Shown here piece after piece: positions 1 through 5,626 of a stretch of DNA of 7,543 bases. This DNA is from a virus. Lineage: Duplodnaviria > Heunggongvirae > Uroviricota > Caudoviricetes. The DNA is taken from the IMG/VR virus record IMGVR_UViG_2778261182_000005; one strand, written 5' to 3'. The notes under the pieces were generated by a model. That model ran no database searches. It worked only from the letters and a program-made list of their open reading frames with translations, and was not told where the DNA came from. The number at the start of each line of letters is the position of its first letter. Positions within the stretch are counted from its first letter, which is position 1. The position numbers and the translations under genes are program-made.

Positions 1-61
<61 letters not shown>

Positions 62-64
62 ATA

Positions 65-139
65 TGGTGCCGACTACCGGAATCGAACCTCGCACTCTCA
101 ACTTAAAGGGTTGACGCTCTTTCCTGATGAGCTAGTGGC
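65..139 (-). tRNA. tRNA-like element, probably a degenerate or pseudo-tRNA (tRNA-Thr-like 3' end, anticodon loop CCUUUAA)
   Basis: Reverse complement is GCCACTAGCTCATCAGGAAAGAGCGTCAACCCTTTAAGTTGAGAGTGCGAGGTTCGATTCCGGTAGTCGGCACCA, 75 nt, flanked by 3-nt spacers to its neighbours. It has a D-arm-like GCTC...GAGC and an anticodon stem TCAAC/GTTGA, but position 33 is C, the T-stem does not pair, and the acceptor stem has a mismatch or bulge. The 3' 24 nt match the 3' end of an E. coli thrW-type tRNA-Thr as I recall it. Confidence 0.45.
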
Positions 140-142
140 GGT

Positions 143-218
143 TGGTGGCCCTTGCTGGATTTGAACCAGCGACCTGGCGATTATGAGTCGCTCGCTCTCA
201 CCACTGAGCTAAAGGGCC
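143..218 (-). tRNA. tRNA with CAU anticodon, tRNA-Ile2 (lysidine type, ileX/ileZ-like) rather than elongator Met
   Basis: Reverse complement is GGCCCTTTAGCTCAGTGGTGAGAGCGAGCGACTCATAATCGCCAGGTCGCTGGTTCAAATCCAGCAAGGGCCACCA, 76 nt with a canonical cloverleaf and encoded CCA. Anticodon loop is ACTCATAAT. Near-identical in layout to E. coli ileX from memory. Confidence 0.85.
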
Positions 219-340: not shown

Positions 341-1060
341 TTAACGAACTCTGACTACATTAATTTCAAAGTCATCAATCTGCCCGCTATTAAGTATAAC
401 GAATGCAGAACTCCCATTACTGTACGATTTCGATAAAACCAGACGATCATCATAGCGTGCAAGAACGTAATACCAAGTATTCTCATAGTGGATCGTCTGA
501 TATTCCCTCTTAAACTGGGGTTTATACCAACCGGCAATAAGAGAGAATGTCCAGAAATAAATCATGAATCCAGCCATAATAAACTCAATTCGGTGATGGC
601 GAATAAAAGACACTTCCGAAAAACATTTGACTGAAATAAGTCTTCTTCCTGACCTGACAAAAAGCGTAATTGTAAAGGCAGCAATAACACAAAAAAACAG
701 CACATCTGGCTCAACGTGCTGATGAATTACCGAAAACTCCAGAACAGGCGGAATAAAAAGCAGCAATATTGCCAGAAAAAGTCTGATAAAACTCAAATTC
801 TGTATATTGTTTTTTTGTTTTATGCCTAAAAAGAAAACAATACCTACTCCCCATCCAGTAAGGAATATAACGATAACGCTCACAGCATAAAACAAACTTC
901 GGGCCACATCATCAACGCCAGCCCCGACGATCCACCATGGAAAGCCATAGTAAAAGGAAGTCCCCCATCCATAGAAATAAGCGCTTCCCCATCCAAGACA
1001 GCCCATATAAGCAATAAAAAGTGAAGAGTTCCTCAGCAGAGTGCTGTCATCCATACCCAT
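341..1060 (-). CDS. Multi-pass integral membrane protein of unknown function (about 5 predicted TM helices plus a roughly 60-aa C-terminal soluble tail); late-operon moron
   Basis: ORF of 239 aa with ATG at 1060 (alternative ATG at 1054 with GAGAG upstream) and TAA at 343-341. Hydrophobic stretches include LFIAYMGCLGWGSAYFYGWG, SLFYAVSVIVIFLTGWGVGIVFFLGI, LFLAILLLFIPPVLEF, VLFFCVIAAFTITLFV and IEFIMAGFMIYFWTFSLIAGW. A sampled stretch (601-660) is about 35 percent GC versus about 52 percent in the nin genes. No family recognised. Confidence 0.6.
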   Translation of the reverse strand: MGMDDSTLLRNSSLFIAYMGCLGWGSAYFYGWGTSFYYGFPWWIVGAGVDDVARSLFYAVSVIVIFLTGWGVGIVFFLGIKQKNNIQNLSFIRLFLAILLLFIPPVLEFSVIHQHVEPDVLFFCVIAAFTITLFVRSGRRLISVKCFSEVSFIRHHRIEFIMAGFMIYFWTFSLIAGWYKPQFKREYQTIHYENTWYYVLARYDDRLVLSKSYSNGSSAFVILNSGQIDDFEINVVRVR

Positions 1061-1190
1061 CTCTCTAACAATTTTAAAACATCAACTCACCTTACATAAC
1101 AAAGGAGATTCCATGCAGTCAAGAGACTTCAGAGCAGGAGAAACTCATTGCGCAATCGCCATCACGTTTAACGTTATGCACCGCTTTCCA

Positions 1191-1221
1191 GATATAAAAA
1201 ACCCGCTCGATGGCGGGCTGT
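1191..1221 (-). terminator. Rho-independent terminator, tR'-like (end of a short 6S-like late leader RNA)
   Basis: On the minus strand a GC hairpin (CCCGC...GCGGG, plus-strand 1202-1217) is followed by T6 then ATATC (plus-strand A-run 1196-1201). The GGGTTTTTTATATCTG motif resembles the lambda tR' 3' end recalled from memory. Confidence 0.6.
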
Positions 1222-1261
1222 AAAAATCCTTCTAACGTCAGGCATAAAACGCCCATCATTA

Positions 1262-1299
1262 GAGCAAATTTACCACAGATTCGGGAAAAATCAACAACA
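1262..1299 (-). promoter_or_regulatory. Late promoter pR'-like with qut-like initial transcribed region (Q loading site)
   Basis: Minus strand reads TTGATT - 16 nt - TGG TAAATT TGCTCTAATGATGGGCG. The -10 TAAATT (plus 1267-1272) is preceded by TG, and the -35-like TTGATT is at plus 1289-1294. The segment GGTAAATTTG...TAATGATGGG parallels lambda pR' GGTAAATTTGACTCAACGATGGG as recalled. It sits directly downstream of the Q stop codon. Confidence 0.55.
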
Positions 1300-2121
1300 C
1301 TATCGCGTTACCCTCTTTAACTGCCGCTCCGCCCATGCCTCTTCAATGTCAAACCGAACCACCAACGTATCGTAAAAGCGTTTCACTGATTTTTTCCACG
1401 TATCAAGCGTGATAGCACTCGTCACTTTGCGTATGGCATTAAATGCCTCCGTTGACGGTAATCTTTCATAGCCACGACCGCCACAACGCTGGCAGTCCCT
1501 GATAACAGGCGTCCCCCGTTTTTCTGACTCTTCACGATGAATGGCTACACCACGCCCACGGCAGTCTTTACAGGCAGTGGAAATCTCTCCCTTCCCTTTA
1601 CATTCAGGACAGGAAACTTTCACCACCTCCCTAACTTTTTTCCATTCTTCCCAGTAAGACGGATACACACCTTTTGTGCACTTTGCCCATACTGGCGGCT
1701 TGCCATCCGGATACTGAACCTTGTTTGTAAAAACTTCGCTTTCAATAAATTTTTCCCCATGGCAACAAGGGCACTGTTTTTTACTCGCTGCGCTGCGGGC
1801 ATAATCCTCAAAAGCGTACGAAGCCATAATGCGCATCACTGCCGGCTTTATTTCTGCCGGAAGCTTTCTTAACGCCGCCACGCGATCGCACTGACTTAAT
1901 GCATAATCTGCCAGTAATTCTGTTGCCCGCACCCTGTCATTCATACTAATGCCCATTTTCCCCAGGAACGCAGAAAACCCCATCTCAGCCCGGTTTTGTG
2001 TCATACCCTGCGCAGCCATCACATCAGTGATGCTCAGCGCATCTTTTGACGTCGAGGCGGATGCATCAGTCAGGCCTGGCGATTTTGGGGAATAGTATTT
2101 CGGTAAATCTTCCAGTTTCAT
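1300..2121 (-). CDS. Late-gene antitermination protein Q (long, phage 82/YdfT-like type with DnaJ-like CxxCxGxG zinc-finger repeats)
   Basis: ORF of 273 aa. Repeated CxxC motifs (CPCCHGEK, CPECKGKGE, CKDCRGRG, CQRCGGRGY). Position is immediately upstream of a lambda-like pR'/tR' and downstream of rusA. The ATG at 2121-2119 overlaps the rusA TGA (ATGA coupling). Confidence 0.75.
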   Translation of the reverse strand: MKLEDLPKYYSPKSPGLTDASASTSKDALSITDVMAAQGMTQNRAEMGFSAFLGKMGISMNDRVRATELLADYALSQCDRVAALRKLPAEIKPAVMRIMASYAFEDYARSAASKKQCPCCHGEKFIESEVFTNKVQYPDGKPPVWAKCTKGVYPSYWEEWKKVREVVKVSCPECKGKGEISTACKDCRGRGVAIHREESEKRGTPVIRDCQRCGGRGYERLPSTEAFNAIRKVTSAITLDTWKKSVKRFYDTLVVRFDIEEAWAERQLKRVTR

Positions 2122-3931: not shown

Positions 3932-4351
3932 TTAAGCTGAGCCCGGCGAATACCAGGGGAAATAAATATCGCTTAACGACGTGTGTTTGAGAACAGAGTC
4001 CACCGCCAATTTTAACGTCAACGACATGAAATTCTCAAAATACCATGAATTTTTCACAAAGAATTTTTCATCGATCAACTCTCCATTCATGATATCAAAG
4101 TCCGTAATCAGCTCCATCTTTAGCTCAAAAGAGGGTTCTTCATCCTCGGCAAGCCCCCCATCTCTATCGGGATACCCTTTTATCGATGGCGAAAACCCAA
4201 TCCGGAACCAACAGGTACCATCATCATCACGCCCCGAAGAAAATTTAACTTCCTCGATCGAGACCTTAAAAAAACCTCCATCATCACTAGTGTTATCCTT
4301 GAAACTACTGGAAACAATATCGAAACCAGCATACTTAATATTTTGTAACAT
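3932..4351 (-). CDS. Acidic hypothetical protein (139 aa from the coupled ATG; 144 aa from ATG 4366), third gene of the hicAB cassette
   Basis: ATG at 4351-4349 overlaps the hicB TGA (4353-4351) as TGATG. Strongly acidic (many D/E, few K/R) with one Cys. A sampled stretch (4021-4080) is about 28 percent GC. No family recognised. Confidence 0.6.
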   Translation of the reverse strand: MLQNIKYAGFDIVSSSFKDNTSDDGGFFKVSIEEVKFSSGRDDDGTCWFRIGFSPSIKGYPDRDGGLAEDEEPSFELKMELITDFDIMNGELIDEKFFVKNSWYFENFMSLTLKLAVDSVLKHTSLSDIYFPWYSPGSA

Positions 4352-4827
4352 CAGTGACGCATCCATCGCTCACCAGCCTCTTTCTTTTTTGTTCTTGCTG
4401 AAGGGGAAATGACGTAACCAAAAGAGAATGCTTTTTCCCAAACGAGCGTATCTGCCGTTTCTTCGCTTTCCGAATGAGAATAAACTTCTTTTTTGTCTGC
4501 AATCTTTTCTTCGATAGCTTTACGCACATAATCATTAAGCGTCGTCTTATCCGCCATTGCAGCCAAAAACGCTTTCTTATGAAGATCGCGACCAATTCTG
4601 ATGTTAAAAGTACCACTCATTGGTTTATCAGGAGATTTCCCTAACTGTTTGCATGTGTCGAGATAATCTGTAACAGCTTCTTCAAAAGCCGCCCTTAACC
4701 CACCCAGTGTTTCCGCTTCGTAGGTTACGACATCGTTTACGCACTGAATTTTCCCATGAAGTATGTTATCTTCAAGTGAAACCTCAATGCTGCCAAAATA
4801 ACCTTTATAACTCAGCACATTACTCAT
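4351..4827 (-). CDS. hicB: HicB-family antitoxin (UPF0150/RNase H-like N-domain plus RHH DNA-binding domain) with a roughly 45-aa C-terminal extension
   Basis: The N-terminus MSNVLSYKGYFGSIEVSLEDNILHGKI...TYEAETLGGLRAAFEEAVTDYLDTCKQLGKSPDKPMSGTFNIRIGRDLHKKAFLAAMADKTTLNDYVRKAIEE matches the HicB-like antitoxin pattern. Start taken as ATG 4827 (MSNV..., 158 aa); the track's ATG at 4842 adds 5 residues. Overlaps the hicA stop. Confidence 0.8.
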   Translation of the reverse strand: MSNVLSYKGYFGSIEVSLEDNILHGKIQCVNDVVTYEAETLGGLRAAFEEAVTDYLDTCKQLGKSPDKPMSGTFNIRIGRDLHKKAFLAAMADKTTLNDYVRKAIEEKIADKKEVYSHSESEETADTLVWEKAFSFGYVISPSARTKKKEAGERWMRH

Positions 4828-5068
4828 AACTATCAATCTCATCCAAAAGATTTTTCACTTCTTTAAGCACATATCCTTTAACAATATTGCCAGGATGTGG
4901 GCAATGAAAAGCCACAAGCCTTCCATTAGCATTGGTAAATTTCCTTCTTGAGCCTGAACCGGTAAGCATTTCGAAACCATAATGCCCAAGCAACGTCACG
5001 AGTTCATCCCATGTAAAATCCTTTGGAAGCTGATTCAGACGCCACCTCAACTTCTCTTTTTTGCTCAT
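4820..5068 (-). CDS. hicA: HicA-family toxin (YcfA-like mRNA interferase), 82 aa
   Basis: FTWDELVTLLGHYGFEMLTGSGSRRKFTNANGRLVAFHCPHPGNIVKGYVLKEVKNLL fits the HicA pattern (ELxxLL...G...GS..F....R...H.PH.G). Located upstream of hicB in the toxin-first order typical of hicAB. ATG at 5068 with a G-rich SD (GGGGGAAGGG) upstream. Confidence 0.85.
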   Translation of the reverse strand: MSKKEKLRWRLNQLPKDFTWDELVTLLGHYGFEMLTGSGSRRKFTNANGRLVAFHCPHPGNIVKGYVLKEVKNLLDEIDSYE

Positions 5069-5296: not shown

Positions 5297-5452
5297 TTAC
5301 TCCTCAGGTTCGTAAGCTGTGAAGACAGCGACCTCCGTCTGGCCGGTTCGGATTCGTACCTCGCAGAGGTCTTTCCTCGTTACCAGTGCCGTCACTATGA
5401 CGGTTAAACAGATGACGATCAGGGCGATTAACATCGCCTTTTGCTGCTTCAT
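5297..5452 (-). CDS. hokD: Hok/Gef-family type I toxin (51 aa membrane peptide), HokD/RelF-like
   Basis: Hand translation gives MKQQKAMLIALIVICLTVIVTALVTRKDLCEVRIRTGQTEVAVFTAYEPEE, matching Hok family and HokD/RelF as recalled. SD AAGGAG lies 8 nt upstream of the ATG. Not in the ORF track because it is under 60 aa. Confidence 0.9.
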   Translation of the reverse strand: MKQQKAMLIALIVICLTVIVTALVTRKDLCEVRIRTGQTEVAVFTAYEPEE

Positions 5453-5508
5453 AGCCTGCTTCTCCTTGACCTTTCGGTCCGTAAGAGGCTAATCTCTATG
5501 TGTCGCAT
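5449..5508 (-). CDS. mok-like leader ORF (19 codons) whose stop overlaps the hok start (ATGA)
   Basis: ATG at 5508-5506 (MRHIEISLLRTERSRRSRL) ends in TGA at 5451-5449, overlapping the hok ATG at 5452-5450. A GAGG SD lies upstream. The leader sequence is homologous to the plasmid R1 hok/mok leader as recalled (ATAGCCTCTTAC, AAGGAGAAG). Confidence 0.5.
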   Translation of the reverse strand: MRHIEISLLRTERSRRSRL

Positions 5509-5570
5509 AGATATGGCCTCAGATTAATGTTAAGCGTCTTGCCGGACGCGTAATGTTAACTGGGGCTTTT
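5500..5570 (+). ncRNA. Predicted Sok-like antisense RNA (approximate limits) complementary to the mok translation initiation region
   Basis: Inferred from hok/sok architecture. A plus-strand TTGACC (5466-5471) with a weak -10 (5489-5495) would start transcription just before the mok start and SD complement. A small hairpin GCGTC-ttgccg-GACGC lies at 5534-5549. The ends are not determined. Confidence 0.3.
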
Positions 5571-5626
5571 CTCTATCTGCCGTTGGTGTTCATGCCCGAG
5601 GCAGATAGCCTCAAGCACCCGCAGCA

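Follow-up and report, generated by a model that had tools for sequence, protein, structure and literature searches.

A PR'-tR'-type late cassette follows the gene of a long-arm Q antiterminator in a lambdoid prophage sequence

Introduction

The 7,543-nucleotide (nt) stretch of viral DNA analysed here (Caudoviricetes, IMG/VR record IMGVR_UViG_2778261182_000005; the whole stretch is called the window in the following) contains, at positions 1191-1299 of the minus strand and directly downstream of the gene for a 273-amino-acid (aa) Q antiterminator, a segment that an initial annotation had described as a late transcription unit of the lambda PR'/qut/tR' type. The Q protein had been regarded in the same annotation as phage 82/YdfT-like rather than as a relative of lambda Q, which raises the question of how a lambda-like qut site came to follow a non-lambda Q protein and whether the segment operates like the late switch of lambda. 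Q proteins fall into the families Q-lambda (PF03589), Q82 (PF06323) and Q21 (PF06530) (Yin et al., 2022; PMC9388147). Lambda Q binds the promoter upstream of the pause element and carries a zinc-ribbon 'arm' formed by residues 114-152; in the loading complex, sigma region 4 is repositioned at a TTGAC sequence beside the tip of this arm (PMC9388147).

We find that Q of the window is a long-arm, YdfT/QuuQ-like member of the Q-lambda family. The segment is very probably the late cassette of a lambdoid prophage, composed of PR', a sigma-dependent pause element (SDPE) and tR', that works as in lambda by constitutive initiation, pausing, termination at about +66 and readthrough by Q-loaded polymerase. 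It is an ordinary, very common and usually unannotated example of a well-understood late switch.

Results

The Q protein belongs to the Q-lambda family

The Q open reading frame (ORF) matched the Pfam profile PF03589 with E = 1.5e-49, and neither PF06323 nor PF06530 was matched even at E <= 1. The best sequence match in PDB was lambda Q (7ubm, E = 9.9e-41), with residues 1-113 and 183-273 aligned, and in BLASTP searches Q was 31% identical to lambda Q (E = 3e-39) and 40% identical to YdfT of E. coli K-12. An AlphaFold2 (AF2) model based on 34 homologues reached a pLDDT of 74 overall and of 86-95 in the helical body, and displayed the helical body with a helix-turn-helix and the zinc-ribbon arm that are known from 4MO1 and 7UBJ. 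In a Foldseek comparison of this model, the top 8 matches were all Q-lambda structures (best 7ubn, E = 5.6e-12; target-normalised TM-score 0.61-0.75), and significant matches were confined to this family. The homology of the 273-aa protein to Q antiterminators was thereby confirmed, and so was its likeness to YdfT, whereas the assignment to the phage 82 type did not hold. Membership in the Q82 family was rejected on the Pfam profile comparison, and membership in the Q21 family for lack of a PF06530 match and because the DNA alignment to the PR'-tR' region of phage 21 stayed at chance level; QuuD matches PF06530 at 3.5e-53. As YdfT itself belongs to PF03589, the supposed mismatch between a lambda-like qut site and a non-lambda Q protein disappears, and for a relative of lambda Q a lambda-like pause element is to be expected downstream of the gene.

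The main difference to lambda Q is an insertion of about 66 residues (114-182), placed where lambda Q carries its zinc-ribbon arm. The insertion adds a second CxxC pair (C117/C120/C171/C174, a second Cys4 set) and, in the AF2 model, a long predicted beta-hairpin with strands 125-136 and 159-170. C184/C187 and C210/C213 are also found in lambda Q, and all eight cysteines were invariant in the 34 homologues. Q shares 92% identity with the representative of a cluster whose 4648 sequences are labelled 'antitermination protein', and among cultured phages long-arm Q proteins are present in Evi, mEp460, HK225, ES18 and SE1. A literature search for QuuQ/YdfT yielded nothing relevant, and a comparative paper on pR' of Shiga toxin (Stx) phages covers the region coarsely only.

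Elements of the probable late cassette

The elements described in the initial annotation are present between positions 1191 and 1299 on the minus strand, on which the genes of the window are oriented. Together with the Q gene they form the following series:

1300..2121, minus strand: Q antiterminator gene, 273 aa, Q-lambda family, four CxxC motifs
1302-1300, minus strand: stop codon TAG of the Q gene
1294-1289, minus strand: -35 hexamer TTGATT of a PR'-type promoter, read from the sequence; starts 5 nt past the Q stop codon
1273..1288, minus strand: 16-nt spacer TTTCCCGAATCTGTGG, candidate Q-binding element (QBE) of the subtype
1275-1267, minus strand: extended -10 element TGgTAAATT, its hexamer TAAATT being the PR' hexamer of lambda
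1266-1261, minus strand: discriminator of 6 nt
1260, minus strand: predicted transcription start (A), aligned with lambda AACGATGGG
1260-1252, minus strand: SDPE AATGATGGG, consisting of the -10-like hexamer AATGAT (1260-1255) and GGG (1254-1252)
1234..1260, minus strand: possible 5'-terminal leader hairpin (+1 to +27) in the minimum-energy fold
1196..1219, minus strand: tR'-type intrinsic terminator with a stem at 1219-1200, a 6-nt loop and a T-run at 1201-1196

The terminator lies about 100 nt past the Q stop codon. Its hairpin has seven pairs, five of them G-C, in the terminator scan, a free energy of -10.3 kcal/mol, and six T's in the T-run; the same hairpin appears in the RNA fold. A second 'terminator' called by the scan at 1266-1250, overlapping the pause element, was regarded as spurious. 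From +1 the leader comprises about 65-67 nt, or 78 nt if counted from the start of the -10 to the base past the T-run, which agrees with the roughly 65-75 nt given in the initial annotation. The shortness that was emphasised there is not unusual: leaders of P22, HK97 and phage 21 have about 50-60 nt and that of lambda 194 nt, so that a short leader is the norm and lambda is the outlier.

Resemblance to lambda DNA

With nucleotides 43800-45300 of NC_001416 as lambda reference, the window and lambda share GGTAAATTTG....AA(C/T)GATGGG, which spans the -10 hexamer, the start site and the SDPE. The 23-nt lambda-shared pattern GGTAAATTTGNNNNAAYGATGGG occurs once in the window and was found in none of 200 shuffled sequences, even with 2 mismatches allowed. 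Local alignment of 1191-1299 with the PR'-tR' region of lambda gave a score of 29, compared to 15.9 +/- 2.2 for shuffled sequences (maximum 27 in 2000), and the same test with the curated PR' region of phage 21 remained at chance level (P about 0.34). The likeness of the core from -10 to +9 to lambda PR' is therefore far above chance. For tR' the resemblance is weaker than claimed previously: the stem-loops of the window and of lambda are different, and their common part is limited to CGGG, the T-run and the 7 nt that come next. The T-run and these 7 nt form a 13-nt identity, TTTTTTATATCTG (window 1189-1201; lambda locus L001, 975-987). It is also present in the two closest relatives of the window (L069 and L070), not in other subtypes, and similarity stops right past it; it may represent a recombination joint. 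With 261 bp as query, blastn against the phage collection missed lambda, the core common to both sequences being too short.

Conservation across Q-lambda-family loci

Loci were sampled from genomes (63) and viral contigs (80) and supplemented with named phages. The relatives on viral contigs are close (91-98% identity) and served to analyse variation within the subtype, not deep covariation. Of 151 loci, 113 contained the motif TAnnnT-N6-AAYGATGGG exactly once and on the strand of the Q gene, with Q identities ranging from 28% to 98%; the pause motif was absent downstream of the Q21-type quuD gene in the DLP12 locus. All 30 related leaders analysed in detail ended with a hairpin and a T-run, which in 26 leaders lay between +54 and +79. 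The same cassette layout followed every Q-lambda-family gene examined. In the records of HK225 and ES18 the equivalent hairpin is annotated as terminator.

Within the subtype of the window (28 sequence variants), the block from -35 to -10 is essentially invariant, including an invariant TTGATT, and the discriminator of 6 nt is free to vary. Changes in the pause hexamer are limited to positions 3 and 4 (AACGAT, AATGAT, AAAGAT, AACAAT, AACTAT), with A2 and T6 fixed. Such a pattern is expected if sigma region 2 reads the hexamer as a -10-like element, and the pattern of variation within the subtype fits a functional cassette. Loci with 51-60% identical Q proteins contain TTTACT in place of the -35 hexamer TTGATT. 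Between subtypes, homology ends just past the T-run, indicating joint inheritance of the Q gene, the promoter, the pause site and the terminator as a single cassette, to which the cargo is attached exchangeably. Of 5426 complete E. coli genomes, 2495 (about 46%) contain the 116-bp unit at a coverage of >= 80%, and near-identical cassettes are present in the cultured phages Evi and mEp460 and in prophages whose late region is complete.

Two further observations were made in this set. Loci with 51-60% identical Q proteins (L007-L013) contain a perfect inverted repeat of about 10 bp between the Q stop codon and the -35 hexamer, e.g. AATAGCTCAC...GTGAGCTATT in L010, which abuts or overlaps TTTACT and could be a terminator of the Q transcript or an operator; the subtype of the window has no such repeat. 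About 20 assemblies of unrelated organisms, labelled as Pseudomonas, Bacillota metagenome-assembled genomes, Kitasatospora, Bradyrhizobium and others (L033-L050, L063), contain a 621-bp Q gene whose product is about 31% identical to the query, as is lambda Q, and in L035, the one checked, the downstream region is identical to that of lambda. These genes most likely derive from contaminating lambda control DNA.

A candidate Q-binding element and the missing TTGAC

The DNA between -35 and -10, where the QBE of lambda is located, falls into three classes that co-segregate with the Q clades: TTGAATAAnnTTGGG in the lambda type, TTGCAnnnTTCAAAAA in the YdfT type and TTTTCC[C/G]GAA[T/A]CTGTG in the window type, the latter being conserved down to 51% Q identity. 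We consider the 16-nt spacer of the window, with its block TTTCCCGAATCTG, a candidate QBE of the subtype. A second difference concerns the -35-like TTGAC before the pause hexamer, which was found in 7 of 7 loci with short-arm (207-aa) Q proteins and is absent from the window (1261-1266) and from all long-arm Q loci examined; the comparison included lambda (L001, 782-787), P22, HK97, epsilon34, L019 and L051. This distribution suggests that the enlarged arm might handle sigma region 4 differently.

A possible leader hairpin

In the minimum-energy fold, nt 1-27 of the leader form a hairpin in which AAUG is paired with CGUU around the inner stem GGGCGU/AUGCCU. In 22 of 26 divergent leaders, including those of lambda and HK97, the minimum-energy fold likewise has nt 1-4 paired, the partner being a conserved CGUU that follows after about 20 nt. 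The pairing corresponds to a conserved dyad AAYGA...UCRUU, usually enclosing GGG...CCY, that is common to lambda (L001, 788-810), P22 and HK97 (L151, about 1899-1921). It was scored by script, as loop lengths vary and MAFFT therefore misaligned the right arm of the dyad. Compensatory changes were found in three lineages, namely L019 (AACAA/UUGUU), L051 (AAUGA/UCAUU) and ES18/SE1 (AACAG/UUGUU), and two retain the pairing by a G-U wobble. Three singleton variants in the subtype are uncompensated and individual z-scores are modest (mean -1.19), both of which argue against a hairpin. A test of the 5-nt arm exceeded shuffled sequences but discriminated poorly, as neighbouring 5-mers scored about equally. 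Taken together, a 5'-terminal leader hairpin is suggestive only.

The downstream late operon

The following features lie beyond the terminator:

341..1060, minus strand: first gene past tR', 239-aa hydrophobic (membrane) protein, phrog_1521, unknown function
256-228, minus strand: candidate promoter TTGCAG-N17-TATTAT, ending about 9 nt before the first tRNA (CAU)
1..218, minus strand: tRNA array
143-218, minus strand: tRNA with anticodon CAU
about 62-141, minus strand: chimeric Lys/Thr tRNA
1-61, minus strand: tRNA-Gly(UCC), truncated by the window edge

Among E. coli prophages, that of UPEC 26-1 is the closest. There, a series of genes on a single strand extends from the unit through the membrane-protein gene and four tRNAs to the genes for holin, lysozyme, Rz, terminase, portal and capsid, which supports the earlier proposal that the late operon starts here. 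The 239-aa protein had no hit in Pfam, NCBIfam or PADLOC. Its gene has a GC content of 0.35-0.40, compared to 0.48-0.56 in the neighbouring sequence, occupies the same position in UPEC 26-1, and is apparently acquired late-operon cargo between tR' and the tRNAs. Other cargo follows the cassette elsewhere, with a DNA methylase gene, tRNAs and stx2 in Stx2_EH1910 and tRNAs directly after the terminator in mEp460. In the Stx2a-converting phage Stx2_EH1910 (L003), a 92% identical Q and the PR'/tR' unit lie upstream of the DNA methylase gene, three tRNAs and stx2A, an arrangement by which the cassette would control Shiga toxin 2a expression in some Stx phages.

The initial annotation had further described the membrane-protein gene and the tRNAs as Q-dependent late transcripts. 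This is reasonable from their position, but the dependence need not be exclusive, because a promoter-like sequence travels with the tRNA array: TTGCNG-N17-TATTAT-N9-tRNA was kept in 15 of 19 fetched loci with a CAU tRNA, whatever the neighbour upstream. The array may thus be driven by this candidate promoter and not solely depend on Q. Relative to its counterparts in E. coli relatives, the array has lost 78 nt (window 62-142 compared to L149 10160-10314). The deletion has fused two tRNA genes at their shared T-loop sequence GGTTCGA, so that the 5' part comes from tRNA-Lys(UUU) and the 3' end from tRNA-Thr. The chimeric tRNA has a mismatched acceptor stem, was not called by ARAGORN and reached 23 bits in Rfam.

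Discussion

The data show the sequence elements and how they are conserved, the family to which Q belongs and the order of the genes. Promoter activity, pausing, Q binding and readthrough are what we infer from analogy with lambda, and the mechanism would be as follows. Sigma-70 polymerase would initiate at about A1260 from TTGATT, the 16-nt spacer and TGgTAAATT. Sigma region 2 would then re-bind AATGAT (+1 to +6) on the non-template strand, resulting in a promoter-proximal pause, probably near +16/+17 by analogy with the +16/+17 pause of lambda; U17/G18 together with G8 fits the elemental pause consensus. Without Q, the polymerase is expected to escape and to stop at the terminator hairpin with its T-run, so that a transcript of about 66 nt would be released. 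With Q bound to the subtype-specific DNA between -35 and -10 and loaded onto the paused complex, polymerase would adopt a termination-resistant form, pass tR' and continue into the membrane-protein gene and the tRNAs, and in intact relatives also into the genes for lysis and morphogenesis.

Several observations weigh against this interpretation. The promoter was missed by a simple sigma-70 scan, since it matches 8 of 12 consensus positions at a threshold of 9 of 12, and it would rely on its TGn extension; compared to lambda it has a weaker -35 hexamer and a 16-nt spacer but has gained TGn. The lambda-class sequence TTGAATAAnnTTGGG is absent from the spacer, so that Q binding is deduced here from the conserved block. 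As TTGAC is absent, Q loading may differ in detail. The fold of the whole leader is only modestly better than that of shuffled sequences (z = -1.74), and the deletion-chimera tRNA indicates that the prophage of the window may be partly decayed.

The weak promoter would agree with the notion that the hairpin and T-run merely end the early operon DUF968-RusA-Q and that the promoter-like and pause-like sequences are non-functional, all the more as the hairpin is situated about 100 nt after the Q stop codon and any intrinsic terminator at this place would stop unmodified early transcripts. A bare terminator, however, needs none of the elements that were defined experimentally in lambda and are annotated in P22, and the -10 hexamer, the spacing and AAYGATGGG are kept down to 28% Q identity next to a discriminator that varies freely; we therefore regard this explanation as highly improbable. 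Signs of decay might alternatively mean that the cassette is an inactive relic of a defective prophage, with its elements present but unused. Besides the 78-nt deletion in the tRNA array, such a view could draw on the fact that no lysis or structural genes were seen in the window and that many E. coli copies reside in cryptic prophages such as Qin. We consider it unlikely, because the Q ORF is intact and close to the representative of its large cluster, promoter, pause and terminator elements are all intact, with AATGAT even nearer to the -10 consensus than AACGAT, and near-identical cassettes occur in Evi, mEp460 and prophages with complete late regions.

The third explanation would add to the switch rather than replace it. 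PR' of Stx phages is constitutively active in lysogens, and the tR'-terminated RNA is the Hfq-binding small RNA (sRNA) StxS; such sRNAs were proposed to be maybe common, and lambda 6S and the short RNAs of phage 21, phi80, 82 and P22 are without assigned function (PMC7547250). By this precedent, the leader of about 66 nt, consisting of a 5' hairpin, an A/U-rich linker and the terminator hairpin with its U-tail, might be the main product of the locus in lysogens and act in trans as an sRNA. The possible protective hairpin at the 5' end, the terminator hairpin and U-tail at the 3' end, conservation of the leader within the subtype beyond promoter and terminator, and the occurrence of the unit in almost half of the complete E. 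coli genomes are consistent with such a role. Conservation of the linker can be explained by recent common ancestry, though, the region between 5' hairpin and terminator is wholly different between Q subtypes, and a comparison of the entire window with Rfam at E <= 1 gave no match at 1191-1299, the matches being sok, the tRNAs and chance hits. An sRNA function of the leader thus appears rather doubtful, whereas operation of the cassette as a lambda-type late switch remains the interpretation that we favour. A combined proposal, in which long-arm Q would load with another geometry on a subtype-specific element without TTGAC and the 5' dyad hairpin would stabilise the leader of about 66 nt as an sRNA, is speculative and in our opinion has a low, albeit not negligible, probability.

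Compared with lambda, the window has a PF03589 Q protein, the -10 hexamer TAAATT, a start at the first A of AAYGATGGG, the terminator-tail identity TTTTTTATATCTG and the order of Q, promoter, SDPE, intrinsic terminator and late genes in common. It differs by the arm insertion of about 66 aa with a second CxxC pair, an unrelated interval between -35 and -10, the lack of TTGAC, another terminator hairpin, a leader of about 66 instead of 194 nt and a -35 hexamer only 5 nt past the Q stop codon. P22 (gene 23/P late/t late) and HK97 (gp69) likewise have Q-lambda-family proteins and the same pause element. The P22 record annotates P late/PR', a 'lambda qut-like' site, the RNA 5' nucleotide and t late; the annotated 5' nucleotide lies 7 nt past the annotated promoter end and is the first A of AACGAT, and the leader has 59 nt from the start to the annotated terminator end. 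In HK97 the T-run begins about 54 nt after AACGAT. Unlike the window, both phages have a short 207-aa Q, a lambda-type QBE and TTGAC, and neither a cargo gene nor tRNAs ahead of the holin gene.

YdfT (QuuQ) of the K-12 prophage Qin is a long-arm Q-lambda protein with four CxxC motifs and 40% identity to the query, and its gene is followed by a -10 hexamer, 6 nt, AACGATGGG and a terminator at about +66. It has 250 instead of 273 aa, a shorter insertion and a promoter/spacer of the class TTGCAT...TTCAAAAAATATGGA-TAAAAT. Phage 21 has the layout of PR', QBE, SDPE and terminator, a leader of about 50 nt and two tRNAs directly after the terminator, but its Q belongs to the unrelated family PF06530, its annotated QBE is a direct repeat and its DNA has no significant similarity to the window. 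StxS is a short, constitutive, tR'-terminated RNA of 74 nt after processing and in this respect resembles the predicted leader; it comes from different Stx phages, and the region of the window lacks an Rfam family match.

For annotation it is useful that the cassette places the start of the late operon in a very common type of E. coli prophage, including some Stx2a phages. The analysis also corrects a family misassignment, as long 'zinc-finger' Q proteins are relatives of lambda Q, which explains why a lambda-like pause element was retained. The mechanism is textbook, and nothing conceptually new is required. Two modest questions arise, namely how an arm with two zinc sites engages sigma region 4 without TTGAC and whether the short leader plays an independent role.

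Other features of the window

Upstream of the Q gene, the window contains a hok/sok type I toxin-antitoxin locus (5297-5620, minus strand), in which sok matches Rfam family RF01794 with 101 bits (5450-5620) and a Hok-family ORF of 51 aa (5297-5452, minus strand) belongs to phrog_251, MokW-like host killing. In K-12 Qin and UPEC 26-1, hokD is found at the equivalent position upstream of DUF968-RusA-Q. A HicA-like toxin ORF (82 aa, 4820-5068) overlaps a HicB-like antitoxin ORF (163 aa, 4351-4842), both on the minus strand and in the PHROG category 'moron', and the HicB-like ORF in turn overlaps the next ORF at 3932-4366 (phrog_19522, unknown function).

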